Source of the DNA: Candidatus Epilinea brevis
GTDB taxonomy: Bacteria; Chloroflexota; Anaerolineae; Epilineales; Epilineaceae
Length of the DNA: 64,000 nucleotides
Reading direction: 5' to 3'
Assembly (NCBI GenBank): GCA_016710785.1
Contig: JADJUE010000013.1
Span: 43,007 to 107,006, forward strand
The translations under genes were made by a program, and so were the position numbers. The notes below the pieces were generated by a model that did not search any database, was not told the origin of the DNA, and saw only the letters and a list, made by a program, of their open reading frames with translations. The stretch's first letter is position 1; each line of letters starts with the position of its first letter. This document shows, piece after piece, positions 5,850-54,094 of the stretch.

Positions 5850-5888
5850 TGGCGGGGGAATGGGGGGAACGGGGGTGGTCGCGCTGCC

Positions 5889-5951
5889 GGGCGAAGCATC
5901 CGCGCTGAGACAAACAGGTCATCGGGTCTGGATGCGGCGGATGCTTCGCCC
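5889..5951. repeat. Perfect 15-bp inverted repeat (long hairpin) downstream of the PEP-CTERM gene
   Basis: GGGCGAAGCATCCGC at 5889-5903 pairs with GCGGATGCTTCGCCC at 5937-5951 across a 33-nt loop. No U-tract follows, so this is not a canonical intrinsic terminator. Confidence 0.4.
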
Positions 5952-6016
5952 CTACCGGGATCCGGGATGATCACGTGGAGATCTTCTGACGTGGGACCAG
6001 GGCGCGTGAGGCAAGG

Positions 6017-7210: not shown

Positions 7211-7270
7211 GCGGGCTCCTTCCTTGGCGGTCATCGGACGCTGTCGCCCCCTCTTCTGGGGGAGGGGGCG

Positions 7271-10966: not shown

Positions 10967-11001
10967 GCGCTGTCCTTTGTTCGCGGCTCGGCGAACCCGG
11001 T

Positions 11002-20452: not shown

Positions 20453-20537
20453 GTGGCCCTCGGGTCCCGATCGTTGCGGCGGTGCTCCCGGCGGATCGCG
20501 GTGCGAATTCCGATGGGGCACGGCCGAGCGGTCCTGC

Positions 20538-29565: not shown

Positions 29566-29664
29566 GGCAGAGGGGAGGGGACTGGGGGGCATGGGGGGGA
29601 ATTGTAGACGATCTCGTTCCACGCCTGCCCTGCTATGATCCCTCCCGCCCAGGAGACTAGCCCC

Positions 29665-32639: not shown

Positions 32640-33746
32640 CTACCCGAACCACCGACCCACGCCCGCCGCACCCAACCCGTCCGCCAGCAGCCGCAGCTTC
32701 TTCTCCGTCTCCACCCAGGTGATGGGCGAGAGGCCCAGGAGTTCGCGGAGGTCGTCGGGGGCGAGGCCCGAGCGCCAGGCGCGCAGGGCCGCGGTCCAGC
32801 GCAGGGTCTCGAAGCTGACCTCGTCACCCAGACCGGCGGCCCGTGCCAGGTCGGCCAGCACGTACTCCAGGTTGCGGTCCGTCCATGGGAAAAGGCGCTC
32901 GGCCGTTCGGTAGCGCAGCAGGTAGGCCGGAAAGAGGCCGGACACCTTGGGCCCAACCGGCACGCGGCGCTCCTTGCGGGCGAAGCGCGGCTGGTCGTAG
33001 CGCACCAGGATGCTGGGCGGGTCCGCATCCAGGTTGAGGTCATCCGTACGTAGACGCACCAACTCACCCTTCTTGAGTCCCGTGTCCAGGAGCAGGCGCA
33101 GCATGAAGGCCGGACGCGGGTCGCGGGCTTCACCGCTGGCCAGTCCGTCCGCGACGGCGAGCAGCGTGGCCGCCTCCCTGTCCGTCAGCACCCGGGCCAG
33201 CGGCGCCTGCGCTCTCCTGTGCACCAGCGTGAGGGCGATGTCTCTTGGCAGAGCCCCGGCTGCGTGCAGCCAGCCGAAGAACACCTTCAGGGTCGTCAGG
33301 CGACGGGCGTAGGTCTTGGGGCTGCAGGGTTCGCCGCGGTACGCCAGCATCCAGGTCAGGAAACGGTTCAGGTCGTCGGTGCTGATGGCTGCCAGCGCCT
33401 TGTCGGGGCCTAGGAACTCTGCTAGCAGCCGCAGGTCGCTGGCGAAGGCGCGCCGCGTGTTGACCGTCTTGGCCAGGCGCCCGAGATGCTCGTCGAAGGC
33501 CGAGGCGGCGCCCTGCAGGCTGCTGGCGGCCGTCGGTATGGGGAGCGGCGCGAGGTAGGGGGAGGGGCTGGTGGCGGTGGAAACCACTGCGTCCGGATCA
33601 CCCTCGCGCGCCGCGGGTAGCGGTTCCTCGTCACCGCCGACCGCGGCGCCCGAGGCTGGTGCCACGGTCGGCAACGACGCAGCCGACGCCGCCTTGGACG
33701 GTGTGTCGAACAACGAGAGCTGTGCTTCGAGCGAACGTTTGTTCAT
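32640..33746 (-). CDS. Tyrosine site-specific recombinase (XerC/XerD-like) with an Ala/Ser/Pro-rich N-terminal extension
   Basis: The N-terminal SAM-like region has TRRAFASDLRLLAEFL. The C-terminal catalytic region has RLLLDTGLKKGELVRL and ETLRWTAALRAW, followed by LRELLGLS. The start is ATG 33746 (MNKRSLE). Confidence 0.65.
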   Translation of the reverse strand: MNKRSLEAQLSLFDTPSKAASAASLPTVAPASGAAVGGDEEPLPAAREGDPDAVVSTATSPSPYLAPLPIPTAASSLQGAASAFDEHLGRLAKTVNTRRAFASDLRLLAEFLGPDKALAAISTDDLNRFLTWMLAYRGEPCSPKTYARRLTTLKVFFGWLHAAGALPRDIALTLVHRRAQAPLARVLTDREAATLLAVADGLASGEARDPRPAFMLRLLLDTGLKKGELVRLRTDDLNLDADPPSILVRYDQPRFARKERRVPVGPKVSGLFPAYLLRYRTAERLFPWTDRNLEYVLADLARAAGLGDEVSFETLRWTAALRAWRSGLAPDDLRELLGLSPITWVETEKKLRLLADGLGAAGVGRWFG

Positions 33747-33804
33747 GCGGGCAGAATAGCAGGCGTCGGTTGGATTGGGAAGCCGGGCCTGCTCCGGCGC
33801 GACC

Positions 33805-38766: not shown

Positions 38767-39207
38767 TCAGCCGAGACCCAGGGCCACCTGGCGCGTCTGC
38801 CGGATCCCCTGGCGTCGACGGACCAGCATGACCACGCTCAAGGTCGCGACCACGGCGGTGCCGGCGCCAAGCAGGCGCAATGCATCCGGGCGCCTCAACA
38901 CCATCAGGGATCGCCGCCCCAAGTCCACGCCGCGCTCAGCAAGCGGCGCCTGTCGTCGAAGCTGACCTTGCTGTTGGCTCGCGGCGGCCACCAACTGCCG
39001 GCGCAAACGGTCCCGACCCGGCTGGTCCATTGACCGGGGCGGCAACGCGGCATCCAGCGAATAGGCCAAGCCCATCAGTAGACGCAGGTCATCCGTCTGC
39101 GCCGCCGCCAGTCGCCGTGCGGCGGTGCGGTCGCCCTGCCGCAGAAGTTCGGCATGGGCGTTCAAGCTGGTCTCGGCGTCCGTTGCCCGTTGGCTGTTGC
39201 CCATCAT
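38767..39207 (-). CDS. Putative anti-sigma factor (single-pass membrane protein)
   Basis: The start overlaps the ECF sigma stop (ATGA). The C-terminal TM is GAGTAVVATLSVVMLV, and the size and position are typical of anti-sigma factors. Confidence 0.45.
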   Translation of the reverse strand: MMGNSQRATDAETSLNAHAELLRQGDRTAARRLAAAQTDDLRLLMGLAYSLDAALPPRSMDQPGRDRLRRQLVAAASQQQGQLRRQAPLAERGVDLGRRSLMVLRRPDALRLLGAGTAVVATLSVVMLVRRRQGIRQTRQVALGLG

Positions 39208-39872
39208 GATGCTTGTCCCGTCGTTGTGGCCCCATCGGGGCCGGCATTCAGCTGCGCACGCAGCTCGCTCAAGGTACGGTGGTAGAGGCTCTTGATCGCG
39301 CCCTCCGTTCGCCCCAGAATGGCGGCGATCTCGGCGTTGCTCAATCCTTGACTGAATTTGTAGACCAGCAACGCCTGGCGATCCTCCTCCAGAAGTCGCA
39401 TGGCGGACAGCAGCAGCTGTCGGTTGAACAGGGTATCGGCGTCGCTGTCGTCGGAAGTGCCCGCCTGTGCGGCGGGATCGTCAGCCAGATCCTCCCACGG
39501 GGTCTGCCTGTGGCGACCCTGGCGCCGATGCCAGTTGGCCACCAGATTGTGGGCGATGCGGTAGAGCCAGGCCGCAAAGGGGTGACCGCGGCTCTCATAG
39601 GTGGACAGGCTGACCAGAGCGCGATGAAACGTCTGGGCGGTCAGATCCTCGGCATCGCTGGTGTTGGCGATGCGGTAACGGATGTAGTTGTAGATCGCGT
39701 CGCCATAGCGATCGTAGAGCCGACCGAAAGCCTCAGCGTTCAACCTGGCTTCAGCCACAAGCACATCGTCATGAGGTTCTACTGTATGTAACACGGCCAC
39801 CGCCAGATAGTTGCGCGTTGCGATGTCCAAAGTCGAAATGCACGAGCGCGGAACTGCCCGTGGGCCCATCAT
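39204..39872 (-). CDS. ECF-type RNA polymerase sigma-70 factor
   Basis: The region-2 motif is FGRLYDRYGDAIYNYIRYRI...AEDLTAQTFHRAL. Region 4 is LSNAEIAAILGRTEGAIKSLYHRTLSELR. The true start is probably internal to the tracked ORF. Confidence 0.7.
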   Translation of the reverse strand: MMGPRAVPRSCISTLDIATRNYLAVAVLHTVEPHDDVLVAEARLNAEAFGRLYDRYGDAIYNYIRYRIANTSDAEDLTAQTFHRALVSLSTYESRGHPFAAWLYRIAHNLVANWHRRQGRHRQTPWEDLADDPAAQAGTSDDSDADTLFNRQLLLSAMRLLEEDRQALLVYKFSQGLSNAEIAAILGRTEGAIKSLYHRTLSELRAQLNAGPDGATTTGQAS

Positions 39873-40006
39873 ACCGCGTAGGAGCGCCGGCGCACAAGGC
39901 GCGAGGGATGTATTGGCGCTGTGCTAGACTGTCGCTGGCGGTTCGGCATTCTCGCTACGGCAATGCTCGGACCGGCACAGGCGGTTGGTCCAGGAGGCAA
40001 GAAGCG

Positions 40007-40411
40007 ATGGCGACGAAGAGCACCAGCGTTGTCGTACCCATGGGGCGACGGATGACGGCCTGGTGGATGACCGGCCCAGCCATGCGGCCGGACAATCCCT
40101 TTGTGTGGCGTCCCCCCACCAATGTCTACGAGACGGTCGAGGGTCTCGTCATACAGATCGAGGTGGCCGGGCTGGCGGCGGATGACTTCCGGATCATCCT
40201 GCGCCCCAGGCGCCTCACCGTGTCCGGCGTCCGACGGCCGGTGCCGGGCTTGGGCCACAGCACTGCTTGCCTCCAGGTGGAGATCCCGGGCGGCAGCTTC
40301 CGCAGCGACGTCGAGCTTCCCTGGCCGGTGAACGTGGATGCCGTGCGCGCCGCCTACCGCCACGGCTTCATCTTCGTCGAGTTGTCCCGCGCCCAGGACG
40401 GCAGCCCGTGA
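40007..40411 (+). CDS. Hsp20/alpha-crystallin family small heat-shock protein
   Basis: GGAGG at 39994-39998 precedes ATG 40007. The alpha-crystallin-like core is WRPPTNVYETVEGLVIQIEVAGLAADDFRIIL...LTVSG. The gene lies immediately upstream of lon. Confidence 0.75.
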   Translation: MATKSTSVVVPMGRRMTAWWMTGPAMRPDNPFVWRPPTNVYETVEGLVIQIEVAGLAADDFRIILRPRRLTVSGVRRPVPGLGHSTACLQVEIPGGSFRSDVELPWPVNVDAVRAAYRHGFIFVELSRAQDGSP

Positions 40412-40422
40412 GCGCGGAATGG

Positions 40423-42918
40423 ATGCCGTCCCTGAGCAACGATGCAAATCCTGAGGACGAACCAGGGCGCTCGGTTCCTGTTCATATCCAACCTGGCGCG
40501 GAGGGTCATCCGGAGGAAGATGAGCCGGCGATACCCGATGAGCTTGCCGTCCTGCCCTTGCGCAACGCGGTTGCCTTCCCCCTGAGCTTCATGCCGTTGG
40601 GCGTCGCTCAGCCCCGTTCCCGGCGGCTGGTCGATGCCGCGACGGTGGGCGAACGGGTCATCGCCCTTTTGGCCTCGAAAGACCCCGAGAAGGACGAGCC
40701 AGGTCCGGATGACGTCTACCAGGTAGGGACGGCAGTCTATCTGCACCGCATGGTGCGCAGCTCGGAAGGAAACGTCGCCATCTTCGTGCAGGGCCTCAAG
40801 CGCATCCGCATCCTGTCCTGGACCGATACCGAGCCCTACCTCAAGGCTCGAGTGGAGGTGCTGCCGGATGAGCGACCGGAGCCCGGCGTCGAATTGGAGG
40901 CGCTGGAGAAGAGCGCGCGAGAGCTCTTCTCACGGATGGTCAATCTGGTGCCGTACCTGCCTGATGAGTTGCTCGGGGCGGCGGAGCATATCGAGGATCC
41001 ACGGGCCTTGTCCTACTTCATCGCCTCCAACCTGCGCATCGACTCGCCGCTGGCTCAGGAGATCCTGGAAATGCCGGACGCCGCGGACCGTCTGCGGTCG
41101 CTGATCGGATTCCTGTCGCGCGAGCTTGAGGTGCTGGAGATCGGCCGGCGCATCCAACAGGAGGCGCGCGGCGAAATGGACAAGGTGCAGCGCGAGTACT
41201 ACCTCCGCCAGCAGCTGAAGGCCATTCAGAAGGAGTTGGGCGAGCGCGATGAGAGCCAGGCCTACGCCACAGAGATCGAAGCCCGCCTGGAAGCGCTGCA
41301 GCTGCCCAAAGAGGCGCGGGAGGAAGCTTTCCGGGAACTGGGGCGGCTCAAGGCATTGCCGGAAGCTTCGGCTGAGTACGGCGTCATTCGCGGCTACCTG
41401 GATTGGATCGCCAGCTTGCCATGGAACACCTACAGCGATGACAACCTGGACATCGCCCATGCCCGCTCAGTGCTGGATGCCGACCACTTCGGATTGAAGG
41501 ACGTGAAGTCTCGCATCCTGGAGTACCTCGCCGTCCAGAAGCTGCGCCGCGAGCGAGTGGAAGGTGAGGGCAGCGAGCTGTCCGGGGCCATTCTGGCCCT
41601 GTTCGGTCCTCCAGGCGTTGGCAAGACCAGCCTGGGCCGATCTGTGGCCCGCGCCTTGGGCCGCCAGTTCGTGCGCATGAGCCTGGGTGGGTTGCATGAC
41701 GAGGCGGAGATACGCGGGCATCGCCGCACCTACATCGGGGCCATGCCCGGCCGCATCATCCAGGGCCTCAAGCGCGCCGGGACCCGCAATCCCGTGTTCA
41801 TGCTGGACGAGATCGACAAACTGGGCTCGAGCTTCCGCGGTGATCCGGAGAGCGCGCTGCTAGAAGTGCTGGATCCGCATCAGAACCGCGAGTTCCGAGA
41901 CCTCTACCTGGACATGCCCTTCAACTTGAGCGAGGTGCTCTTCATCTGCACCGGCAATGTGCTGGCCCAGGTGGCCGGTCCGCTGCGCGACCGGATGGAG
42001 GTGATCGAGTTGAGTGGCTATACCGAGACGGAGAAGGTCGCGATCGCCAAGGGCTATCTCGTCCCACGGCAACTGACCGAGAACGGATTGCGTCCCGGCG
42101 AACTGACCCTGGAAGATGCGGCGCTGAGCGAAATCATCCGTCGCTATACCCGGGAGGCCGGAGTGCGCGGCCTGGAGCGACAGATCGGCAAGGTAGCGCG
42201 CAAAGCCGCTGTGCTGGTGGCCGGTGGAGAGAAGGAGGCCATCACCGTTTCGGCCGTCCAGGTGCCAACCCATCTCGGCCAGCCGCGCTTCTTCGACGAG
42301 GTGGCTGAGCGTACGGCGGTGCCCGGCGTGGCCACGGGGCTCGCCTATACCGCGGTGGGTGGAGATGTTCTCTTCGTGGAGGCCAGCGCCGCCGCGGGTG
42401 GCAGAGGCTTCCTGGTGACGGGACAGCTGGGCGATGTCATGCGTGAAAGCGCGCAGGCCGCCCTCAGCTATGTGCGCTCGCGCGCCGAGGACCTGGGCAT
42501 CGAGCCTGGCTGGTTCGCCGGCCATGACCTGCATCTGCATGTTCCGGCGGGCGCCACCCCCAAGGATGGCCCTTCAGCCGGCGTGACCATGGCCACCGCG
42601 CTATTGAGTCTGATCTCCGGCCGTTCGGTGCGCCCCGACGTCGGAATGACCGGCGAGATCACCCTGCGTGGGCGGGTACTGCCTATCGGCGGCGTCAAGG
42701 AGAAGGTACTCGCGGCTCACCGCGCCGGACTGCGGACCATCATCCTTCCCGCGCGCAATCTGGCCGACCTGGACGAGGTGCCCTTAGAAGTGCGGGAAGC
42801 GATGCACTTCGTCGGCGTGGAGCGGATCGACGAGGTCTGGGCGGAGGCCTTGGTGGGTGGCATCCCGCGGCCGGGCCTGGCCAGCGTGGAACTGCCGCAA
42901 GACCAGGCCGTGGAGTAG
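40423..42918 (+). CDS. lon: ATP-dependent Lon protease (LonA)
   Basis: There is a Lon N-terminal domain. The AAA+ module has GPPGVGKTS and DEIDKL. The catalytic-Ser region is [18 protein letters not shown] with a [12 protein letters not shown] Lys. The in-frame GTG at 40408 is an alternative start. Confidence 0.9.
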
Positions 42919-43048
42919 CTGGCCTGTGCCGCCTACCGGCGTTGCTACCGGTGGCGCCGGCTCGGCGTAAGCGACGGCAGGGCCCCATCGGACCGGGCGG
43001 CGTCGTCGCTCCGATTGCGCTGACGGGGCAGGTGCAGGAGGCACCGTC

Positions 43049-45118
43049 ATGCAATATGTTCTCGGAACGCTGGTATTGGTCGTGGCTATCTACTTCCTCT
43101 TGGGGTCCATCACCGGCATCCGCCTGATCCCCAACAACCGGGTGGGCATCGTGGAGAAGCGCTTCAGCGGGCGCGGCTCCTTGAAGCAGGGTTTCATCGC
43201 CCAGGCCGGGGAGGCCGGTTTCCAACCGCAATTGCTGCGTGGCGGCCTGCACTTCCTGATGCCGGTGCAATACCGGGTGCACACCACATCGCTCGTGACC
43301 ATTCCGCAGGGCAAGATGGGCTATGTCTTTGCCCGTGACGGCCAGCAGCTCCAGCCCGGCCAGGTGCTGGCCAGCAATGCTCAGGTGGTGGACTTCCAGG
43401 ATGCCGGCGCCTTCTTGCGCGGCGGCGGGCAGCGCGGACCGCAGCGGCAGGTGCTGCGCGAGGGCACCTACGCCATCAACCTGGCTCAGTTCGTGGTCAT
43501 CACCGAGGACGAGGTCTTCGCGATGCCGCTGTCCGCGGAAGATAAGGCCATGATCAACGAGATGGCCACGGTCATCGAGCAGCGCGACGGATTCAGGCCG
43601 GTGGTGATCAAGGATGCTGACGATTCAATGGGTGTCGTGACCGTTCACGACGGGCCTTCGCTGCCCCCCGGCGAGATCATTGCGCCCACCGTCGGTGAGG
43701 ACCGGGAGCATTCGGACACATTCCACAACAGTTTTCAGGACGCCGACCGCTTTCTGGCCGCCGGCGGCATGCGCGGTCGCCAGCTGCAGGTGCTGGTGGA
43801 AGGCAGCTACTTCATCAATCGCCTCTTTGCCACGGTGGAGATGGTCCCCAAGACGGTGATCGAGGTGGGCTACGCTGGGGTGGTGGTGTCTTACACCGGC
43901 CAATCCGGCCAGGACATCTCCGGTGAGACCTACCGGCACGGCGAGCTGGTGTCACCCGGTTTCCGGGGCGTCTGGAGCGAGCCGCTCCTACCGGGGAAGT
44001 ACGCCTTCAATACCTACGCCGGCAAGGTCGTGAGCGTGCCCACCACGAACATCATCCTGAAATGGAGCCGCTCAGAGTCCGGCGTGCACCGCTACGACGA
44101 GAACCTGGCCGAGGTGAGCCTGATCACCAAGGACGCTTTCGAGCCCAACCTGCCTCTATCGGTCGTCATCCACATCGACTACCGCGAGGCGCCTCTGGTG
44201 ATCCAGCGTTTCGGGGACATCAAGCGCCTGGTGGAGCAGACCCTGGACCCGATGGTCAGCGCCTACTTCAAGAACATCGGCCAGACGCGGACGCTCATCC
44301 AGCTCATCCAGGACCGTTCGGTCATCCAGATGCAGTCCTCGGAGGAGATGAAGAGCAAGTTTGCGCATTACAACCTGCACCTGGAAGAGGTGCTGATCGG
44401 CACGCCCACCTCTTCGCCGGGTGACAACAAGATCGAGGTCATCCTCACCCAGCTGCGCAACCGCCAGATCGCCGAGGAGCAGGTGGAGACCTACCAGCGG
44501 CAGGAGAAGGCAGCGGTTCAGGAACGGATGCTGCGCGAGGCCGAGTCCCGTGCTCGCCAACAGCAACTGCTGACGGAATCCGAACTCAACATCACCGTGT
44601 TGACCAATCAGGGCAAGGCGGACTACCAGCGCGCCTTGCAGCAGGCCGCGCAGATCCGTGCTCTCGCCGAGGCGGAGGCGGAGAAGTCCGCGCGCATCGG
44701 CATCGCCCAGGCCTTGGCCATCGAGGAACAGGTCAGGGCTTACGGCGGGCCGCAGTTCCAGGTGGCACGAGAAGTGATGTCGCGCTTCGCCGACGCCATC
44801 CAGCATTCGAAGGTCGATGTGGTGCCCAAGATCCTGATCGGCGCTTCTGCCGGTGCTGGAGCGCAGGGCGGCGGCACGGGCTCGGTGATCGAGGCCCTGC
44901 TCACCCTGCTGCTCTCGGAGCGGATGGGGGTGTCGTTGGGTGGCGATCTCCCGCGCAGCCCGGAGGTGGATGTCATGCGCGATCGGCTTCGCGCAGCCCT
45001 GGCGGCAGCGCCGGCTGCTCCGGACACGGAGAGATCCCAGATCTCTACCGTAGTCCCGCCGACTGCGCCGTCGTCTCCTGCGGATTCTTCAGACGACGCG
45101 AGTCCGCCCACGGTATGA
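43049..45118 (+). CDS. SPFH/band-7 (flotillin-like) membrane protein
   Basis: AGGAGG RBS. There is an N-terminal TM helix (LGTLVLVVAIYFLLGSI), then a long SPFH-type region, a coiled-coil with EAEAEK-like Ala/Glu repeats, and a Pro/Ser-rich tail. Confidence 0.7.
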   Translation: MQYVLGTLVLVVAIYFLLGSITGIRLIPNNRVGIVEKRFSGRGSLKQGFIAQAGEAGFQPQLLRGGLHFLMPVQYRVHTTSLVTIPQGKMGYVFARDGQQLQPGQVLASNAQVVDFQDAGAFLRGGGQRGPQRQVLREGTYAINLAQFVVITEDEVFAMPLSAEDKAMINEMATVIEQRDGFRPVVIKDADDSMGVVTVHDGPSLPPGEIIAPTVGEDREHSDTFHNSFQDADRFLAAGGMRGRQLQVLVEGSYFINRLFATVEMVPKTVIEVGYAGVVVSYTGQSGQDISGETYRHGELVSPGFRGVWSEPLLPGKYAFNTYAGKVVSVPTTNIILKWSRSESGVHRYDENLAEVSLITKDAFEPNLPLSVVIHIDYREAPLVIQRFGDIKRLVEQTLDPMVSAYFKNIGQTRTLIQLIQDRSVIQMQSSEEMKSKFAHYNLHLEEVLIGTPTSSPGDNKIEVILTQLRNRQIAEEQVETYQRQEKAAVQERMLREAESRARQQQLLTESELNITVLTNQGKADYQRALQQAAQIRALAEAEAEKSARIGIAQALAIEEQVRAYGGPQFQVAREVMSRFADAIQHSKVDVVPKILIGASAGAGAQGGGTGSVIEALLTLLLSERMGVSLGGDLPRSPEVDVMRDRLRAALAAAPAAPDTERSQISTVVPPTAPSSPADSSDDASPPTV

Positions 45119-45221
45119 GCGCTTATCAGTAGGAGAATGCAAGGGCGGGGTGGCCCGAGAGGGCGCCCCGCCGTAGCTCCCCGGCCGACCTCCCCAGGTC
45201 TGTTCGACCGACCGGAAGCGA

Positions 45222-46190
45222 TCAATCCCGCAAGGTCTGGGCAATGAGCAGCAACTCAGCGTCAAGGTCTTTCTGCCGGCTTCCCACCTGCTCCAAGGTC
45301 AGTGCGCGAAGGCGTCCCTCGTGCGAGCCCAGGAGCACACCGTGTTCGCCATGCGCCAGGCAAGCCACTGCGGCGGCGCCGAGTCGCGTCCCAAGCATGC
45401 GGTCGGCGTAAGTCGGGGTGCCACCACGCTGCACATGGCCAAGGATGGTCAAGCGAACCCGAGGGGCATTGTCATCCAGTTGTGCTTCCGCAAAGGCCCT
45501 GGCGAGGCCCGCGGCGCCGCCACGCCAACCTTCGGCTACCACGCCCACCGCATACCCTTTGCGGTCGAAGGCATCACGCAATTCGACCATGAGGTCCAGC
45601 TCGTCGCTGTCTGTTTCTGGAATGGCGATGATCTCGGCCCCTCCGGCGATGCCGGCGTTCAGGGCTAGATAGCCGCAGTCCCGTCCCATCACCTCAACCA
45701 GGAAGATGCGCCCGTGGGAGCTGGCGGTGCTCCGGATGCGGTCGAGCGACTCCAGCACCACATTCAGGGCCGTGTCCACGCCGAGGCTGACGTCGACCCC
45801 CCAAAGGTCGTTGTCGATGGTCGATGCCAGACCGACCACCGGGAACCCCAAGCGGCTGAGAGCCAGCGAGCCCCGCTGACTTCCATTGCCACCCACCACC
45901 ACGAGGCCGTCGATGTTCCGCTGCGCCAACTGCTGGAGCGCTGCTTCCTGACCGACCGCGCCGCTGAACTCTGGTGCTCGAGCCGAGCGCAACATCGTGC
46001 CGCCCAGCTGCATGATGCCGCCGACCGCGCGGCTGTCCAAGGGCTGGAAGTCACCTGCCATCAAGCCACGGAAGCCCTCGAGAACGCCAACAACGTCCCA
46101 GTTGCGCTGGCTGCCCGCGCGCACCACGGCCCGAATGGCCGCATTCATACCCGGGGCGTCGCCGCCGCTGGTCAGGATGGCGATGCGCAT
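45222..46190 (-). CDS. pfkA: ATP-dependent 6-phosphofructokinase
   Basis: MRIAILTSGGDAPGMNAAIRAVVR, GLVVVGGNGS and VMGRDCGYLAL are diagnostic. Confidence 0.85.
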   Translation of the reverse strand: MRIAILTSGGDAPGMNAAIRAVVRAGSQRNWDVVGVLEGFRGLMAGDFQPLDSRAVGGIMQLGGTMLRSARAPEFSGAVGQEAALQQLAQRNIDGLVVVGGNGSQRGSLALSRLGFPVVGLASTIDNDLWGVDVSLGVDTALNVVLESLDRIRSTASSHGRIFLVEVMGRDCGYLALNAGIAGGAEIIAIPETDSDELDLMVELRDAFDRKGYAVGVVAEGWRGGAAGLARAFAEAQLDDNAPRVRLTILGHVQRGGTPTYADRMLGTRLGAAAVACLAHGEHGVLLGSHEGRLRALTLEQVGSRQKDLDAELLLIAQTLRD

Positions 46191-46192
46191 CG

Positions 46193-47074
46193 CTAACGCC
46201 TGCCGGGGGGCATGCGTCCCGGATCGACCACCCTGGTGGGCTCCTCGGTTGGCTTGATTTCGGGTGTCTCGGATACATCCCGCCCGGGTGTCGGCGTCCT
46301 GGTAGACTCGCGCTGTTCGGTGGGCTTGAACGTCGGACTCGCGGGTGGACTCGTGGGAGGCAGGTCGGTTTTGGACGGCACGATGACGGGTGTGTCAGTC
46401 GGGACGGCCGTCTGGGTTACCGGTGGCGGCGTTTCCGAGTGACGAACAGTTGCTGTGGCTCTGGCTGTTGGGTCTTCCTGGTCCGGAGCGGCGGGTTGAG
46501 GCGGGAGCATGGTCGAGGTAGGCGTCATCGTGGCGCTGCGTGTCACGGCCCGATGCTGCGGTAACGCTGTGCCGAGCGTCGAGCGGGCCGAGGCCGCCGC
46601 GCCAGCTGTGGCGCTGGGCGTGTGGGTCGCGCTGGCGGAAACGCTGGCGATCGCCGTCGCGGCAGGTCGAATGGCAGTTGCGCCGACTGTCGGCATCGAA
46701 GGAGCCACAGAGGTTCCGGACTCTTCCCTGACCGCCAGCCAAACCAAGATGGCGAGCGCGGCCAACGCCGCAAGGACCACGGCCGCGCGGGTCCGGCCGG
46801 GCGGCGCGACGGCAGGCTTAGGTGCCGGACCTGGAGATTCCGCCGATGGCTCGGGTCGCCTGGGTCCGCCGGGTTCCAGAGCCAGGCGAGCCGCCAGCCG
46901 TTCGGCCAAGCCGAGTGGCGCGGGCAAAGCCTGCAGCCGTCTGACATGCCCGGCGGTAGCCAAGAGGTCGGCAAGCTCGCCCTGAACGGGCGATGCAGGA
47001 GCGCCCCCCCCTGAATCGGAGGCCAGCGCCACTTCCAGAGCCCGAGCGAAGTCCCGGTCGGAGGCGTCGCTCAT
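46193..47074 (-). CDS. Putative anti-sigma factor with a Pro/Thr-rich extracytoplasmic region
   Basis: The start overlaps the ECF sigma stop (ATGA). There is a single TM, AAVVLAALAALAILVWLAV, followed by low-complexity T/P/A/S-rich sequence. Confidence 0.45.
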   Translation of the reverse strand: MSDASDRDFARALEVALASDSGGGAPASPVQGELADLLATAGHVRRLQALPAPLGLAERLAARLALEPGGPRRPEPSAESPGPAPKPAVAPPGRTRAAVVLAALAALAILVWLAVREESGTSVAPSMPTVGATAIRPAATAIASVSASATHTPSATAGAAASARSTLGTALPQHRAVTRSATMTPTSTMLPPQPAAPDQEDPTARATATVRHSETPPPVTQTAVPTDTPVIVPSKTDLPPTSPPASPTFKPTEQRESTRTPTPGRDVSETPEIKPTEEPTRVVDPGRMPPGRR

Positions 47075-47643
47075 CGGTGCGCCGTTCCGCGCTGCTCGTT
47101 TGCCGAAAGCTGCCGTCTGAGGGCAGCCAGACCATGATGTTGCAGGTTGTGCACGGCGTTCTCCGAACGGTCCAGAATCCCTCCCGTCTCGGCGGCGCTG
47201 AGGCCGACAATGAACCGAAGGGTGACCACCTGCCGCTGAAGGGCGGTCAGGCTTTCCATGGCTGTCATCACTTCCTGGCTGAGAAGAAGCTGCTCCGCAG
47301 TAGCCCGCGGGTCCCCTTCAAGCGAAACCGCCGTATCCACAGGTTCACGGTCGACTGGAGGCGCTGGGCGCCGTGCCTGATCGCGCCAGTGATTTCGCAC
47401 GCGATTCTGCGCGATACGCAACAACCAGACCCGGAAGCGGTCCGGATCGCGCAACTCGCCGAGTGATCGGTGGGCTTGCAGAAACACCTCTTGGCAGATG
47501 TCCTCGGCCAGCTCTCGCTGCCGAACCTGGAACAGGACGGCTCGATAGACCAGCGCAAGGTGTCCGCGGTAGAGCTGCGCAAAGGCGGCGTGGTCTCCGC
47601 GGCCGGCGGCCTCGACGACCGCAGCGTCCGTGGACTCAGTCAT
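47071..47643 (-). CDS. ECF-type RNA polymerase sigma-70 factor
   Basis: Region 2 is FAQLYRGHLALVYRAVLFQVRQRELAEDICQEVFLQA. Region 4 is LSAAETGGILDRSENAVHNLQHHGLAALR. Confidence 0.75.
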   Translation of the reverse strand: MTESTDAAVVEAAGRGDHAAFAQLYRGHLALVYRAVLFQVRQRELAEDICQEVFLQAHRSLGELRDPDRFRVWLLRIAQNRVRNHWRDQARRPAPPVDREPVDTAVSLEGDPRATAEQLLLSQEVMTAMESLTALQRQVVTLRFIVGLSAAETGGILDRSENAVHNLQHHGLAALRRQLSANEQRGTAHR

Positions 47644-48005
47644 GAGTCGACCAATCCGCCACTACGTATCCCGTGCTCCATACAACCGACACCGGAAGCA
47701 TCCATGTCCATAGACTCTGGCAAGAGGTTGACGTCGGCACACTCGACCCACCGCCGGTCGTAGCGGCCGCAGGCTTGGATCAGATCCAGGAAGAACCTGG
47801 CAGGCATGGCGAAGAGCCCCTTATGCTGGCGCCGCTCCGGCCGACCCGGTCAATCGGCCGGCCGGTCGGCAACGACCTGCATTGTGCGCTGACCGAATCT
47901 CACTTGTCAAACCGATGGCCACGACGCCACAACCCCTTCGGCCGAAGCTGAATGCCGGACGACGAGCCTGGCGAAGGGGAATCCGCGCACCCGTCGCGAG
48001 TCGCC

Positions 48006-50450
48006 CTACGACGCAAGTACGTCGGAGGTAGACAGTTGCAGCCGTCGCTCCACGAGCTTGCGCAGACGGAGTTCGACCGCTCCGTTGACCGTCCCCGCCG
48101 GGTACTGTCCGTCAGCCTGTCGTTCGCCCGCAGGGTGTCCGGTCAGCAAGGCCATCGCCTCGTCTACCGTGGCGATTGGGAATAAGTAGAAGCGTCTTGC
48201 CTGAATGGCCTCCAAGACGTCGTCGCTCAACATCAGCTGCTGGACGTTGGCGAGGGGCAGAAGGACCCCCTGAGTCCCGGTCAGTCCGTTCTGCCGGCAG
48301 ACCCTGAAGAAGCCTTCTACCTTCTCGTTGATACCGCCGATTGGCTGGACCCTCCCCATTTGGTCCAGGGCCCCGGTGACAGCCAGGTCTTGCCGCAAGG
48401 GCATCTCGGTCAAGGCCGACAGCAGAGCCGCCAATTCGGCTGTAGAAGCGCTATCTCCATCGACAAGCGCATAGGACTGCTCGAAGGTAATGCTCGCCGC
48501 GATGCTGAAGGGTTCGCCCGAGAGGTAGCGTCCGCGCAGGAACCCCTCCAAGATACGGACACCCTTGCTGTGAAAGGCGCCGCTGAGGGCCACCTCGCCC
48601 TCGATGTCCGAGACCAGACCAGTGCCCAGGCCAACCACCGCGGTGATCCTGGAGGGCATCCCGAAACTGAACTCCCCCCGAGTCAGAACAGTCAGCCCAT
48701 TCACCTGACCAACCGCCATCCCCTCCGTGAAACAGGTCAAAAGGCCGTAGTCGACGGCTTCCAGCATGCGCTGCCGCGAAAGGTCGGAACGGGACTCTCG
48801 CTGGTGCAAGGCCTGGTTGACATCGCCTGCGGCGATCGTTGCACGACCGGACTTTCCCGCCCAATAATCCGCCTCGTGCATCACGTTCGTCAGATCGAGG
48901 AAGTGGTTCGAGAGCCGCGCTCCGTTGTCAGCATCGCGGGCGCTGTACTCGATCAACCGCGCCACGGCGGGCGCGTCCAAGTGCCGAATGTTCTCGTTGC
49001 GGCAGGTGTTGGCGACGAAGCGTGCCAGAAGCAACTCGGATTCCGGCGTTCGGTCCATACTCGCCGCGAATTCAGCACTGACCTTGAACAGCTCGGCCAG
49101 GTCGTTGTCGGCCTGATGGAGAGCAAAGTACAGACTGGTGGAGCCGGTCAGAATGACCTTGCAGCCCAGGGTCATGGGCTGGGGATCCAGGCTGATCGCC
49201 GTGATGGGATTCTGGTCCGAGTTCGGAGGCTCGATTCGCACCTCCTGATGCCGCAGAGCCCGCTTCAGAGCGTCCCAGGCGTAGGGCTGGGCTAGCAGGT
49301 CTTCAGCCTCCAGGACGAGGTAGCCGCCGTTGGCGCGGTGCAAGGCCCCGGGCTTGATGAGCGTGTGGTCGGTCATGGCTGAACCGCCCCGTTGCTCATA
49401 CTCGATCCGTCCAACCAGGTTGGCCAGGGTGGGCAAGCGCTCGAAATGCACTGGCGCCCCGGTGGTCCCGGCATGATCCACGAGCACGTTCGCGGCCCAG
49501 CGCCGCAGCCGAATGTCCGACCTGCGACGCACGCGAGCCCGCGCGGCCGAATCAAGGCCGGCGACCGACGAGCCTTCGCTTTCATCGCCATCGCCGTTCG
49601 GAGGCCGGAGCAGCTCCAAGTGGTCCAGAATGTCGTCTCTGACCTTGCTGAGGTAAGTCATGACGTCCGGCAACTCTGCGAAGTCATCGTCGAGTTCGGC
49701 AATCCGGTGGTTCACCTCTTTGGCCGCGATATCCCGATCCAGGGTCGCATTCGCGTCGGCCGCCTCACGCTCCAGCAGGCGCTGCGACCGGGTGGCGGTC
49801 TCCAGCACCGCCTCGGCGCGCTGCAAGGCGTCTCGCAACCGCACACGATCAGGCTCAGGCAAGGCGGCGAAGGCCTCCCGCGTCATCGGCCCGTCAACCG
49901 AGAGTGGCGCAACGGTCAGCCCTTCCGGTGTCTGCAGGAGCCCGATGCCGTCTGTGGCGACAGTGGTTCGCACCGTTTCGAAGAGGTCTTGACTGCGACT
50001 CTCGAATGTATGAATCAGGTCTTGACGGCGGTTGGCGGCCGCATCGGTCTCGAAGGCCGCGGGTAGGGCGATGAGCAGCTCTTCAACCACGCGATTGAGT
50101 TCGGCGCTCAGCTCCGCGCCCCTCCCCGCCGGTAGGCGGAGGAATCGCGGACGATAGGGTTCCTCGAAATTGAAGATGTAACACAGATCATCCGCAGCGG
50201 GTCGCAATGAGGCCACCTGGTTGAGGAAGAGCCGCAAGGTGGTGGACTTGCCAGAACCGCCCGGACCGTGGGCGAAGATGTGGTAGCCGCGACGATCGAT
50301 CTCCACCCCGAAGCGAACCGCCTCCACTGCCCTGGGCTGACCGATGATTTCCACCAACGGCTCGAGTTCCGCTGTGCTTGCGAACCCGAGGGTCTCAGGG
50401 TTGCAGCGGCGGATGCCGCTGTCCGGCGGCAACGGTCGAGGCACGGTCAT
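48006..50450 (-). CDS. Lon-like ATP-dependent protease (YcbZ/LonB-type AAA+ ATPase with a C-terminal S16 proteolytic domain)
   Basis: The P-loop is HGPGGSGKST, followed by a long helical insert. The C-terminal segments VTGALDQMGRVQPIGGINEKVEGF resemble the Lon_C Ser-Lys dyad region. The product is 814 aa. Confidence 0.7.
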   Translation of the reverse strand: MTVPRPLPPDSGIRRCNPETLGFASTAELEPLVEIIGQPRAVEAVRFGVEIDRRGYHIFAHGPGGSGKSTTLRLFLNQVASLRPAADDLCYIFNFEEPYRPRFLRLPAGRGAELSAELNRVVEELLIALPAAFETDAAANRRQDLIHTFESRSQDLFETVRTTVATDGIGLLQTPEGLTVAPLSVDGPMTREAFAALPEPDRVRLRDALQRAEAVLETATRSQRLLEREAADANATLDRDIAAKEVNHRIAELDDDFAELPDVMTYLSKVRDDILDHLELLRPPNGDGDESEGSSVAGLDSAARARVRRRSDIRLRRWAANVLVDHAGTTGAPVHFERLPTLANLVGRIEYEQRGGSAMTDHTLIKPGALHRANGGYLVLEAEDLLAQPYAWDALKRALRHQEVRIEPPNSDQNPITAISLDPQPMTLGCKVILTGSTSLYFALHQADNDLAELFKVSAEFAASMDRTPESELLLARFVANTCRNENIRHLDAPAVARLIEYSARDADNGARLSNHFLDLTNVMHEADYWAGKSGRATIAAGDVNQALHQRESRSDLSRQRMLEAVDYGLLTCFTEGMAVGQVNGLTVLTRGEFSFGMPSRITAVVGLGTGLVSDIEGEVALSGAFHSKGVRILEGFLRGRYLSGEPFSIAASITFEQSYALVDGDSASTAELAALLSALTEMPLRQDLAVTGALDQMGRVQPIGGINEKVEGFFRVCRQNGLTGTQGVLLPLANVQQLMLSDDVLEAIQARRFYLFPIATVDEAMALLTGHPAGERQADGQYPAGTVNGAVELRLRKLVERRLQLSTSDVLAS

Positions 50451-50518
50451 CGCTGGCTCCGATGGGTAGGTGGTGAATCCCCATTATAGCCAACGCGCTC
50501 CGGCACCTGGGCGACCGA

Positions 50519-51691
50519 CTACCTACCAGCCGCTAGCCGCCGTTCAGCGTTCTGCACCAGACGCTGACCGCCGGCCGACCACCAGCGACTGAAGGTGCTC
50601 GACTCATCGGAGCGTCGATCACGCCACATCCCTCCCACCCAGTCCACGTAATGAGCCGTTTCGGCGGGCAGAGACCGCTTTCCGGCGAGCATCGCGAGGA
50701 CGGTTCCGGGTCCGCCGTTGTAGGCCGCCGCGGCCAGTTCGACCGACCTCTGCCAATCTGGGTCCGCGCTTTGGCCGAAGCGGCCCAGTTGTTGCGCGAT
50801 GTATGCGGTGCCTAACTCGACATTGGTCAATGGGTCGGTCAGCCGGCTGAGGTTGAAGGCGCTCATTCCCAGCTGCTGGGCGACTTCCGTCGCCGTAGCA
50901 GGCATCAGTTGCATCAGCCCGGTGGCACCCGCTGAGCTGCGTGCCTCTGGGTCGCCACCGGACTCCACCAGGATGATGATGGCCACAAGTTCAGGATCCA
51001 CTTTGTGCCTGGCTGCAATCCGGGCGACATCTGGCCACCAGCGCTGAACGGACTGCGGCAGCCATGCGATATCTGGCGACGAGGAACGGCTGGAGGACGT
51101 CAGGGCGAGGCTGTCAACAGAGGACTCGCTCGTCGCTACGATCGTCTCGCCACCGCTGTACGAGGCTGCGGACTGAGGCTGTGACCAACGCTCCGGACGA
51201 AGGTCTGCACTATCCAGAAGGGCTGGCTCGCCGGCAGTGAGCCGTATGGCATCGGCGGTAACGAAACCGTAGCGGTAGCCGTCGGAATCGACGATCCGAA
51301 CCCAGTTGAGGGCATGCAGGCCGAGCCCGGAAGCCACGCGCAACTGTCCGCCTATCTCGACCGACGCGCCCGACGGGATCTCCTGACTGGCCACCACCGC
51401 CCCCGGAGCGTCGTAAAGGGGGACGGCGCGTTCGGTCGAACCCAGGGCTTGCACGCTGAAAGGCATGGGGGGCGCTAGAGGAGGAGCGCTGGCTACTGCT
51501 TCTACAGCGTCGGTGGTTGTAGCGGCCAGGTTCTGCGGCAGGGCGGCCGCACCGAGCATCACGAGACCCAGAACCAGGAGCCCCACTGAGGTGACGGATC
51601 CACCGCGGACCGAGCGGGGCAAGGATGCTGGTGAGCGGTAGTTGCTGTGGCCGGAGCCATGGGGGGCGTAACTGCTGACATGGGCGGTCAT
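50519..51691 (-). CDS. Membrane-anchored lytic transglycosylase (SLT domain) protein
   Basis: There is an N-terminal TM. The SLT core is LVAIIILVESGGDPEARSSAGATGLMQLMPATA, with AYNGG following. Confidence 0.65.
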   Translation of the reverse strand: MTAHVSSYAPHGSGHSNYRSPASLPRSVRGGSVTSVGLLVLGLVMLGAAALPQNLAATTTDAVEAVASAPPLAPPMPFSVQALGSTERAVPLYDAPGAVVASQEIPSGASVEIGGQLRVASGLGLHALNWVRIVDSDGYRYGFVTADAIRLTAGEPALLDSADLRPERWSQPQSAASYSGGETIVATSESSVDSLALTSSSRSSSPDIAWLPQSVQRWWPDVARIAARHKVDPELVAIIILVESGGDPEARSSAGATGLMQLMPATATEVAQQLGMSAFNLSRLTDPLTNVELGTAYIAQQLGRFGQSADPDWQRSVELAAAAYNGGPGTVLAMLAGKRSLPAETAHYVDWVGGMWRDRRSDESSTFSRWWSAGGQRLVQNAERRLAAGR

Positions 51692-51782
51692 GGTCGGACT
51701 CCTGACTCATTGATTCCGTTGCCCTTGGAACAGGCTACGGATGCGGCCGCGCCCTCGTGAAGCCGTGGTGGCGAAGTCGCTT

Positions 51783-51817
51783 AGAACAGATGTTCACATT
51801 CTATAAGAACAACTGTT
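51783..51817. promoter_or_regulatory. Two tandem GAAC-N4-GTTC palindromes (Cheo-box-type, candidate LexA/SOS operators)
   Basis: GAACAGATGTTC is at 51783-51794 and GAACAACTGTTC at 51806-51817, with centres 23 bp apart. They lie in a locally AT-richer intergenic stretch about 95-125 bp upstream of the minus-strand SLT start. Confidence 0.4.
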
Positions 51818-51885
51818 CGGAGTCAAGTCCGTTGACGACAGTACATACCCGAACGAGACGGCACCCGATACCAGGCGCAGTGAAG

Positions 51886-51930
51886 GCAAAAAAAGGACCC
51901 CGCCCAGGCGTCAACAGGGCGGGGTCCTCG
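51886..51930. terminator. Bidirectional rho-independent terminator
   Basis: A7 run, then stem GGACCCCGCCC, a loop, and stem GGGCGGGGTCC. On the minus strand the stem is followed by T7, matching the end of the HiPIP gene at 51956. Confidence 0.55.
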
Positions 51931-51955
51931 GAAGCCTGCGTCGCCGCAGGCCCGA

Positions 51956-52312
51956 TCAGGCGGTCTTCTCAGCCCAGCTGTCGCAGTAGCCTCCGGGGTT
52001 GATGGACCCTGGGACTACCAGGCACTTGCCGCAGCTTGCGGTGGCATTGGCAGCATCCGGCTGGAACTGCTGGCAGTTCGTGCAGTTCTTGCCTTCAGTG
52101 ACCGACGCGTCGACGTAGTTCAGCGTCGTCCGCGTGGTCTTCTCATCCTCAGTCAGTGCCGAAACGTCCGTGCAGGCAAGGGCGGTGGCATCGTCAGTAT
52201 CCGTACCGGCGCCCTCGGTCCCGCAGGCTGCCAGAGCACCGGCTCCGACGACGACCGTGCCGACGACGGCCAGGCGCTGAATGAAATTACGGCGGGTCAA
52301 GGTGTCGCTCAT
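51956..52312 (-). CDS. High-potential iron-sulfur protein (HiPIP) with a Tat signal peptide
   Basis: TRRNFIQRLAVVGTVVVGAGALAAC is a twin-arginine signal. The Cys ligands are CTNCQQF...CGKC...GGYCDSW. Confidence 0.7.
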   Translation of the reverse strand: MSDTLTRRNFIQRLAVVGTVVVGAGALAACGTEGAGTDTDDATALACTDVSALTEDEKTTRTTLNYVDASVTEGKNCTNCQQFQPDAANATASCGKCLVVPGSINPGGYCDSWAEKTA

Positions 52313-52424
52313 CGCGTGCTCTCCTCATGGTTGGCCGCGCCAGGTGCAGTCCCCGCGCAGGTTATGAAGGCCGTCGGGGAATCCGATCCGGCTACACCCT
52401 CCATTATCGAATCCAGACGAGCCC

Positions 52425-53417
52425 ATGTCAAGCGGGCTGCGATGCGAATTACGTTCGTGGTCGGTCGGAGTGCAACCTGATTGCACCTGGTTTGACGGAG
52501 AACGGGATGGCGTGGGACGCCGGACCGCTAAACTGGTGCATGGCATCCCGTTGTCCCATCGCCACAGCGCATCCCCGATCCGCGTCTGCCGACAGCCGCA
52601 GTGCGGTTCTCCTCGCCCGATCCGTGCATGCATGACCGGATCTACTGGAAGGGAACAGGCCTGGCTGCGCGTCATGGCATCAGTGGTGGGCCCTCTAGGA
52701 ACCCAGCGACTGCCGCAGGTCCTCGCCGGCTTGGGCCGGACGGTTGCCGATTTCCGCTACTCGGAGGCGGAGTTGCTCGCGCTCACCGGGAGGTTGTCCG
52801 GTGTCTGTGTCGCGATCGGGATCGCGGCCTGGAGCGGGCGATCGAAGGGGACCTTGCGCGACATAGGGCATCGCTGCCGCGACCTCATGATGGTTGGTCT
52901 GGTTCGGCTCGGACTTTCCGCGCTCGTCGTTGGCCTGCCGTCGCTGTGGGTCCCTCGCCCTGAGTCTGCTTCTCTTGCGGTCCTTTCCTCACTGACGCTC
53001 GCCTTCCTGTCGCTGCGCCTCAGTCCCGCTACCGCTTTGGCGATGCGTGGCGTCGGTGCGGCGGATGCCATCGTCTGCGGATGGCGATGCTCGGGGCGGC
53101 GGCCGCTCGCAGCGGCCCGCCTGGCGTTGCTGGAATGGGCACCGGCCGCATGGGTCGCCGGCAGCGGCTGGAACGTCGCGGGCGTACGGTTGAGCCTGTT
53201 GGGACAGCCCTGGGCGGCGTGGGATCCGGGTCCGTCATGGACTCCCGCTCCGACACTTGCCTGCCTGGCGGCTGGGGTGGCCTTCTGGCTTTGGATGGCG
53301 GAAGCGGATCGCTGGGATGCTGCAGCTGCGGCAGATGACCGCGGTTGCGAGTTGGCGCGGACTCGGACCGTCTCGATCGGCTCGTCCGAAGGAGGTGTGG
53401 CGACTTGGAGAAGTTGA
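52425..53417 (+). CDS. Hypothetical protein (possibly membrane); weak call in a region of atypical codon usage
   Basis: Only a long ORF supports this call. Third-position GC is lower than in neighbours, with many T-ending codons. There is no recognisable domain. An alternative start is at ATG 52674. Confidence 0.2.
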   Translation: MSSGLRCELRSWSVGVQPDCTWFDGERDGVGRRTAKLVHGIPLSHRHSASPIRVCRQPQCGSPRPIRACMTGSTGREQAWLRVMASVVGPLGTQRLPQVLAGLGRTVADFRYSEAELLALTGRLSGVCVAIGIAAWSGRSKGTLRDIGHRCRDLMMVGLVRLGLSALVVGLPSLWVPRPESASLAVLSSLTLAFLSLRLSPATALAMRGVGAADAIVCGWRCSGRRPLAAARLALLEWAPAAWVAGSGWNVAGVRLSLLGQPWAAWDPGPSWTPAPTLACLAAGVAFWLWMAEADRWDAAAAADDRGCELARTRTVSIGSSEGGVATWRS

Positions 53418-53422
53418 ACTGC

Positions 53423-53908
53423 ATGCGTGTTCTCGAGCGGGCGCGGATTCCATTCGCCATGCACCACTTCGCTGCTGAGCACCTCTCCGCTATCGAAGTA
53501 GCCGCACAGGTCGGCGTGGATCCGGCGAGGGTATACAAGACCCTGGTCGCCATTCCGGCTGGCGGCAAGCCCGTCCTGGCCATGTTGGCCGCCCCGTCCA
53601 GCCTGGATCTCAAGTCGCTCGCCCGGGTGCTTGGGGTGAAGCAGGTGGCCATGGCCACTCAGGCCCAGGCGGAGTCCCTGACGGGGCTGCGGGTCGGAGG
53701 CATCGGAGCGCTGGCGCTCCTGAGCAAGGGATGGCGAACGGTCTTGGACCGCTCGGCTCTGACGGTGCCCCAAGGCAGCATCCTGGTGAGCGCTGGTCGA
53801 CGGGGCATCAACCTGGAGATCTCAGTCGCAGACCTCATCGGGCTGTTGTCGCCGATCGTGGCCGACGTGTCCCTACGGCAAGAGTCGGGTGAGTCGAAGG
53901 CCAGGTGA
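53423..53908 (+). CDS. ybaK: YbaK/EbsC-type aminoacyl-tRNA deacylase
   Basis: VYKTLVAIPAGGKPVLAMLAAPSSLDLKSLARVLGVKQVAMA and the segment from GLRVGGIGALAL to SAGRRGINLEI are colinear with E. coli YbaK. Confidence 0.7.
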   Translation: MRVLERARIPFAMHHFAAEHLSAIEVAAQVGVDPARVYKTLVAIPAGGKPVLAMLAAPSSLDLKSLARVLGVKQVAMATQAQAESLTGLRVGGIGALALLSKGWRTVLDRSALTVPQGSILVSAGRRGINLEISVADLIGLLSPIVADVSLRQESGESKAR

Positions 53909-54094
53909 TGGGCCGCCTGGAACCGGGTGCGGCATAACAACTGCCGACATTGTCCCGTCATATAGGCGATGGTTTCCCTCGCTGATTCGATCGGCGCTTG
54001 CCCGAACGAGTGAGTCGCCTCAGCCCAGGACTTCTTTGTGCGGATAGCCCAGACGCCCCCAGCCGCATTCATCGCCAAGTCGCGACCGATCCGG

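Follow-up and report, generated by a model that had tools for sequence, protein, structure and literature searches.

The window analysed here, a 64,000-nucleotide stretch of contig JADJUE010000013.1 of Candidatus Epilinea brevis (assembly GCA_016710785.1, positions 43,007 to 107,006), carries two GAAC-N4-GTTC palindromes upstream of a gene for a membrane-anchored family-1 lytic transglycosylase, referred to below as SLT. The SLT gene is followed by lonC, which encodes a Lon-like protease of the LonC type. With a probability of roughly 0.7, we read the palindromes as tandem LexA-type (SOS) operators within a strong sigma-70-type promoter of the SLT gene, and on this evidence the SLT enzyme is probably switched on by DNA damage. 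The operator type would be an ordinary one; what is likely new is the target, a conserved and lineage-specific membrane-bound lytic transglycosylase as a likely member of the SOS regulon.

Both palindromes are perfect: GAACAGATGTTC occupies positions 51784-51795 and GAACAACTGTTC positions 51807-51818, with 23 bp from start to start and an 11-bp gap between them. An original prediction, made from the sequence letters alone, had placed them correctly and had described them as lying 23 bp apart in an AT-richer stretch upstream of SLT, which agrees with a G+C content of 39% for the 51 bp around the boxes, 59% for the whole intergenic region and 68.5% for the window; the stretch it delimited, however, ended at 51817, one base short of the complete second box. 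The window contains four GAAC-N4-GTTC sites, where dinucleotide shuffles gave an expectation of 0.47 and no shuffle reached four, and two sites no more than 40 bp apart were produced in none of 400 first-order Markov simulations of the window. Chance origin of the box pair is excluded.

On the coding (minus) strand the order of elements is CTTGACT-CC-GAACAGTTGTTC-TTA-TAGAAT-GT-GAACATCTGTTC. A promoter scan identified TTGACT-17-TAGAAT, which has 10 of 12 consensus matches and belongs to a set of just three such sites in 5 kb, where 0.5 would be expected, with the -35 hexamer TTGACT at 51821..51826 and the -10 hexamer TAGAAT at 51798..51803. The first operator box, GAACAGTTGTTC (51807..51818), starts 2 nt after the -35 hexamer and lies in the 17-nt spacer, while the second, GAACATCTGTTC (51784..51795), starts 2 nt after the -10 hexamer and covers the predicted transcription start, so that two bound dimers would exclude RNA polymerase. 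As read from the sequence, this placing of operators inside the promoter follows the classic layout of SOS promoters under repression. The leader predicted for SLT is about 100 nt long and has a GGAG Shine-Dalgarno sequence (51699-51702, minus strand). Upstream, within the HiPIP-SLT intergenic region of 265 nt, a terminator scan found an intrinsic terminator of the HiPIP gene (51888..51920, minus strand; hairpin 51920-51897 followed by a T-run), and a hairpin is kept in relatives; the predicted terminator separates the SLT promoter from upstream transcription. An Rfam scan of 45000-54000 produced no match, and folding z-scores of -0.65 for the SLT 5' untranslated region and -1.27 for the SLT-lonC gap gave no riboswitch or terminator signal. 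The HAIR, CIRCE, RDRM and PafBC motifs were compared by eye with the promoter sequence and did not fit it.

The promoter was then compared among relatives. In four close relatives whose LonC proteins are 72-83% identical to that of the window, the HiPIP-SLT-LonC-sigma synteny is kept, and the block CTTGACT..GAAC-N4-GTTC..ATAnnnTG.GAAC-N4-GTTC stands out in otherwise diverged intergenic DNA. The half-sites are fixed among these relatives and the N4 spacers vary, with a refined motif, GAACA-N2-TGTTC, fitting nearly all boxes of the close clade. Further SLT orthologues of 40-60% identity were collected and their upstream DNA was read, and one locus (L201 in our numbering of loci) was added independently from a DNA pattern scan. 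The resulting 13 lineages, which by their NCBI names are metagenome-assembled genomes (MAGs) of Ardenticatenales, Anaerolineae/Anaerolineales and Caldilineae, have SLT proteins of 40-67% identity. All 13 have TTGAC[AT] at the same place, a 16-18-nt spacer and a TAnnnT -10 element, and in all 13 the spacer holds a box that has one mismatch or none; 11 of the 13 have a further box, 2-14 nt downstream of the -10 element, and L201 has four boxes in total. Absence of the palindromes at orthologous loci had been named in the original prediction as something that would speak against it, and the reverse was found. Such deep conservation of boxes and promoter while the flanks diverge is strong comparative evidence for functional operators, in keeping with the proposal that these are genuine sites of the Cheo-box type. 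One Ardenticatenales MAG, GCA_020853525.1, holds two SLT paralogues, one with LonC downstream and two boxes (L214) and one without LonC, with one box only and a DEAD-box helicase gene in divergent orientation (L216). A single site on another locus, L049, was uninformative.

The same alignments bear on the possibility that the GAAC elements are -35 boxes of promoters read by an extracytoplasmic function (ECF) sigma factor, namely the one encoded at 47071-47643, and that their palindromy is incidental. The -35 elements of ECF promoters often contain GAAC, and a pair of ECF sigma and putative anti-sigma genes follows lonC in the close clade. However, conservation extends to the two half-sites of each box, as inverted repeats, and to a canonical TTGAC[AT]/TAnnnT pair that frames the boxes. 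Distant lineages retain the boxes with no ECF sigma gene nearby, and no CGT-type -10 element occurs at ECF spacing. We regard this explanation as highly improbable.

Firmicutes and Actinobacteria use GAAC-N4-GTTC as their LexA motif (PMC4951493), and variants of it occur in Chloroflexi according to the Dehalococcoides study of Fernandez de Henestrosa et al. 2002, as cited in PMC4951493; the original prediction, which had called it the LexA core of Chloroflexi-type organisms, is to that extent in line with what has been reported for the phylum. RegPrecise and papers on the Vibrio SOS response provided no details of Chloroflexi sites. Compared with the Cheo/SOS box of Bacillus subtilis, Mycobacterium and Dehalococcoides, the window boxes have an identical 4+4 palindromic core and 4-bp spacer, with A/T favoured at the spacer edges, and like the tandem LexA operators at lexA promoters they are arranged in tandem, with their 11-bp gap, over the -35/-10 spacer and the start site. 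These putative LexA operators differ from the known ones in their target, since a lytic transglycosylase is not a described SOS gene, and in a fixed register (box 2 nt after a TTGAC -35 element) that is typical of the lineage and also found at FtsK-like genes of two other Chloroflexi.

A scan of 185,579 species genomes for pairs of GAACANNTGTTC boxes separated by 7-15 bp gave at least 120 loci, mostly from Actinomycetota and Firmicutes. Among the matches listed, lexA itself lies directly beside the tandem boxes in about 20, and the other neighbours include single-pass membrane proteins with LysM domains resembling YneA and ChiZ (clusters of 26 and 8 loci), which are the commonest partners in other phyla, as well as dinB and a radical-SAM gene. 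All of these count among the classic genes of the SOS response, and the presence of lexA, LysM and dinB genes beside these boxes indicates that tandem perfect boxes are a signature of the SOS regulon in organisms that use the GAAC box. Three of the matches listed are from Chloroflexi, and all three have the '-35, box, -10, box' design; in L201 it precedes an SLT orthologue, in the other two loci short FtsK/SpoIIIE-like genes. The latter, in an Anaerolineae MAG (L139; 863-901 for the promoter region with 'TTGACA, box, -10, box', 945-2147 for the gene) and in Chloroflexota bin156, CP070785 (L190; 4837-4871 and 4898-5689, with the same promoter design), encode proteins without a transmembrane helix and may represent another lineage-specific member of the regulon.

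These data also address whether the palindromes could instead serve some dimeric helix-turn-helix repressor other than LexA that is specific to this cell wall gene and happens to bind GAAC-N4-GTTC, such as a regulator of envelope stress or of the cell cycle in Anaerolineae-type Chloroflexi. The link from motif to LexA in this lineage is indirect, and the Chloroflexi genes behind tandem boxes among the matches listed, SLT and the short FtsK-like genes, include no textbook repair genes. Against this, core, spacing and the A..T preference in the spacer match the Gram-positive-type LexA box, the same tandem layout occurs beside lexA, LysM division inhibitors and dinB among the matches listed, and the motif is reported for a Chloroflexi LexA (PMC4951493). 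Control by another repressor therefore seems rather unlikely, and from motif, architecture and literature taken together we hold with good confidence that the repressor is LexA. We know of no other widespread regulator with a GAAC-N4-GTTC motif.

A search for the regulator genes themselves gave a single hit. When E. coli RecA and the LexA proteins of E. coli and B. subtilis were compared by tblastn with 90 loci, only a lexA gene on L048, a LonC-bearing metagenome contig, was found. This gene (5040-6001) has GAACATTCGTTC 15 nt upstream of its ATG, which counts as indirect evidence for LexA as the repressor, and is divergent from the LonC gene, with a tRNA gene in between. Among the relatives of its product none was named Chloroflexi and none lay on contigs of this MAG, and a tblastn search of PLSDB plasmids with LexA found no Chloroflexi replicon carrying lexA.

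Several observations weigh against the reading of the boxes as LexA operators that control an SOS gene. The assignment rests on motif identity, architecture and phylum-level literature, and neither lexA nor recA is present in the 64-kb window; the LexA encoded on L048 is closest to LexA proteins of Thermoleophilia and Actinobacteria. The SLT gene is never found beside lexA, and so is not transcribed divergently from it as genes of the YneA/ChiZ type are; the genes upstream of it are those for HiPIP, a hypothetical protein, SpoU, a DEAD helicase and others. Three lineages (L009, L211 and L213) have a degenerate box 1 (GCAC), L014 has two boxes with one mismatch each, and L216 has one box. Lastly, SLT is an enzyme of 390 aa without a LysM domain and the SOS-induced division inhibitors YneA and ChiZ are proteins of roughly 100-170 aa; the analogy to them, developed below, is functional only.

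Which gene the boxes control was examined next. The original prediction had noted that SLT is followed on the same strand by an 814-aa Lon-like protease, and this holds, the two genes being 68 nt apart; it had gone on to propose one SOS-inducible module of protease and cell wall hydrolase, and here our results differ. LonC lies downstream of SLT in 10 of the 13 lineages, although the flanking genes differ. In three cases a box-bearing SLT gene is without LonC downstream: L201, where a convergent hydrolase gene follows, L213, where RNase II takes that place, and L216. The 68-nt gap contains a TATAAT hexamer (50483..50488, minus strand), some 32 nt ahead of the lonC ATG, that appears to be the -10 element of a separate lonC promoter, and TATAATG is invariant in the four lineages of the window's clade within a gap that otherwise varies. 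In distant lineages the gap between SLT and lonC measures 157-369 nt and contains strong hairpins and separate -10-like elements. We also inspected 80 LonC loci (39-47% identity) obtained in a metagenome scan with the LonC profile: tandem boxes accompanied LonC in none of them, SLT was upstream in L014 only, and a perfect core occurred in L013 only, as one copy lying about 100 nt before LonC. This result argues against LonC as the gene to which the boxes are linked. Since the boxes track SLT, even in three cases without LonC, and lonC has a -10 element of its own, the direct target is SLT, and this element together with the features of the gap make lonC best read as a separate transcription unit.

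A single SOS-inducible operon of SLT and lonC, transcribed only from the box-bearing promoter, would account for the shared strand, for a short gap in which a terminator scan and folding found no terminator-like hairpin or T-run, and for an adjacency that persists in 10 of 13 lineages while the flanks differ. The invariant TATAATG at the right distance from the lonC ATG, the long gaps with hairpins and separate -10 elements in distant lineages, the three box-bearing SLT genes without LonC and the 80 LonC loci, which together show no tandem boxes and one single perfect core, make such an operon quite improbable. With lonC as a separate unit, the lack of a terminator in the 68-nt gap would still allow read-through from the SOS-type promoter, and SOS induction of lonC is possible only by that route.

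The SLT gene (50519-51691, minus strand) encodes a protein of 390 aa with a PF01464 domain (E=4e-26). Its architecture comprises a disordered N-terminal cytoplasmic tail (residues 1-33), one transmembrane helix (about 36-52), an all-beta domain (78-160), a disordered Ser-rich linker and the SLT domain (205-390); a Pfam search found no LysM match in it. An AlphaFold (AF2) model built from 38 homologues had a mean predicted local distance difference test (pLDDT) score of 80, with both the all-beta and the helical (205-390) domains confident. Foldseek matched the helical domain best to Slt70, MltE and MltC, with a probability of 1.0 for Slt70 and MltE. Residues E243 and S244, the GLMQ motif (G258-Q261) and the AYNGG motif (Y324-N325) are invariant in 39 SLT orthologues, and these invariant catalytic motifs suggest that the SLT enzyme should be active. 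The window protein thus shares its fold and the catalytic Glu-Ser, GLMQ and AYNxG with Slt70, MltE and MltC (glycoside hydrolase family 23, Pfam SLT), but it is anchored by an N-terminal transmembrane helix, where those enzymes have a lipobox or are soluble in the periplasm, and it has, in addition, a conserved all-beta domain and a helical extension at the C terminus (WVGGMWRER...AGG). The family comprises about 120 sequence clusters whose names, where given, are Chloroflexi, and on these database names it is confined to Anaerolineae-type Chloroflexi.

The protease gene (48006-50450, minus strand) encodes 814 aa with LonC_helical, AAA_32, LonB_AAA-LID and Lon_C domains. Profile scores were 46 bits for PF20437 (the LonC helical domain), 161 bits for PF13654 and 74 bits for PF20436, all above the cut-offs, and the best PDB match by phmmer was 4fwd, the LonC of Meiothermus taiwanensis (E=5e-88). 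The best NCBIfam match was LonB, far below its cut-off. The domain check proposed in the original prediction found Lon_C with its S16 Ser-Lys dyad (S667/K710), which is invariant in 34 homologues. By these profiles the label supported is LonC-type; YcbZ-type, the name given in the original prediction, is without evidence, the sequence and model of YcbZ (E. coli LonH) lying outside the comparison. Like M. taiwanensis LonC (TTC1975 peptidase, ATP-independent), the window protease combines the LonC helical insertion, an AAA-like module without the Walker B glutamate and a Ser-Lys domain; it is longer than the 732 aa of the Meiothermus protein and differs in its Walker A motif. This is intact in the window protein (GPGGSGKS) and invariant as GxxGxGK[ST] in its clade, with GxxGxGK invariant among the 34 homologues, where M. 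taiwanensis LonC has GPPSLGKH at the aligned position. The catalytic glutamate of Walker B is replaced by alanine in 30 of the 34 homologues, and Walker B of the window protein is E-A. An intact Walker A without the Walker B glutamate would be compatible with nucleotide binding without hydrolysis. To our knowledge LonC is known structurally and its physiological context is not known.

The original prediction had also suggested a domesticated lysis or defence function by analogy with BrxL-like proteases. In its fullest form this would mean that a phage-type repressor controls a cassette domesticated from a prophage, with a lysis or anti-phage function. Both lytic transglycosylases and Lon-like proteases are known from phages and defence systems, and a tyrosine recombinase gene lies 18 kb away. 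However, no phage structural, holin or bacteriophage exclusion (BREX) genes, the latter including pglX, pglZ and brxA-C, are found nearby, and the flanks consist of housekeeping genes (HiPIP, a YbaK-type editing protein, the ECF sigma factor, phosphofructokinase and LonA) in a synteny that is conserved across species. The protease matches LonC, and it had no match to the BrxL model TIGR02653 at E <= 0.001, the only hit being a weak, sub-threshold one to the canonical LonA (40267-42918). The chance that the locus is such a cassette appears negligible.

The surrounding genes were mapped as follows. HiPIP (51956-52312, minus strand) is the upstream neighbour of SLT. Downstream of lonC, a gap of 362 nt (47644-48005) with its own promoter-like sequence TTGACA-18-CACAAT (47910-47881, minus strand) leads to the ECF sigma gene (47071-47643, minus strand), which is followed by a putative anti-sigma factor and then phosphofructokinase; the identical contigs L003-L005 carry, in some of their gene calls, a 55-aa open reading frame (ORF) that overlaps the start of the ECF sigma gene. 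Identical copies of the LonC protein are encoded on the NCBI MAG contigs JADJNM010000001.1 (GCA_016709185.1) and CAWKSS010000003.1 (GCA_963851905.1) as well as on contigs of wastewater metagenomes, and NCBI names the source of this protein 'Ardenticatenia bacterium' (Chloroflexota). Five kb from the LonC locus lies a likely stress cluster (39200-45118) that contains a further ECF sigma gene (39204-39872, minus strand), an Hsp20-family gene, LonA and a gene for a 689-aa SPFH/Band-7 protein.

The other two GAAC-N4-GTTC sites of the window are at 13751 and 33733. The first, with a GC-rich spacer and a location between convergent 3' ends, was judged to be due to chance. The second (GAACAAACGTTC on the minus strand, 33733-33747) overlaps the likely true start ATG (33747-33745) of the tyrosine recombinase/integrase gene (32640-33747) and directly follows a TATTCT -10-like hexamer, a position like that of box 2 in the SLT promoter. 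LexA control is known for integron integrases, and judging from this site the recombinase gene could be LexA-controlled as well. On the plus strand, DNA polymerase I appears to be split into two ORFs (29635-32569), of which 29635-30921 encodes the 5'-3' exonuclease and the start of the 3'-5' exonuclease and 30971-32569 the remainder and the polymerase domain; a frameshift, a pseudogene or an error of assembly would account for this. Elsewhere in the window, a 1166-aa protein (17021-20521, minus strand) joins an adenylate/guanylate cyclase, a NACHT NTPase and a C-terminal FGE-sulfatase (SUMF1-like) domain in an unusual STAND-type architecture, and the region 1114-11005, with an exosortase (EpsH) gene followed by a gene for a PEP-CTERM/VIT protein near one for a 1244-aa VWA protein, resembles a cluster for surface proteins that depend on exosortase, here in a Chloroflexi genome.

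In the mechanism that we propose, LexA would occupy both boxes and shut the SLT promoter; DNA damage would lead to RecA-stimulated self-cleavage of LexA, derepression and a burst of SLT enzyme, which, at the outer face of the membrane, would cut glycan strands during repair. Its most likely role would be a damage-linked remodelling of the septal or lateral wall. SLT would then be a functional counterpart of the SOS-induced, membrane-anchored and peptidoglycan-binding division inhibitors YneA of B. subtilis and ChiZ (Rv2719c) of M. tuberculosis. Like them, it lies behind LexA-type boxes and is a single-pass protein with its N terminus inside and an extracytoplasmic part that targets peptidoglycan; where they have LysM, SLT carries an all-beta domain and an SLT domain predicted to be catalytically intact.

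The comparison extends to the proteases that reset these checkpoints (YlbL/DdcP and CtpA, and E. coli Lon for SulA), in that SLT has a Lon-family protease as its neighbour, with a separate and apparently constitutive promoter. YneA is removed by proteases that include the Lon-domain protein YlbL, and YlbL levels are not regulated by damage (PMC6051672). LonC may turn over SLT by way of its cytoplasmic tail, by analogy with Lon and SulA and with YlbL/CtpA and YneA; it is, however, a cytoplasmic and soluble protein, whereas YlbL and CtpA act outside the membrane. The recurrent adjacency of SLT and LonC suggests, if only tentatively, that LonC turns over SLT or other damage-induced proteins. We further speculate that Anaerolineae-type Chloroflexi (Ardenticatenales, Anaerolineales, Caldilineales) might run an SOS checkpoint of envelope or division through a LexA-repressed, active membrane-anchored transglycosylase, in place of a small inhibitor of the LysM or SulA type, with LonC as its dedicated reset factor, a scheme that we consider doubtful as a whole and that, if true, would provide a new type of effector for a bacterial DNA-damage checkpoint and place LonC for the first time in a physiological substrate context.

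Even if LexA were not the regulator, the locus would present a deeply conserved operator through which another regulator acts on a cell wall enzyme. The conserved pairing of SLT with LonC yields a specific hypothesis on what LonC does in the cell. For filamentous Chloroflexi, abundant members of activated sludge, the SOS regulon is essentially uncharted, and this locus is a conserved candidate member of it; as the SLT product acts on peptidoglycan, it may show how DNA damage is coupled to wall growth or septation in these organisms.

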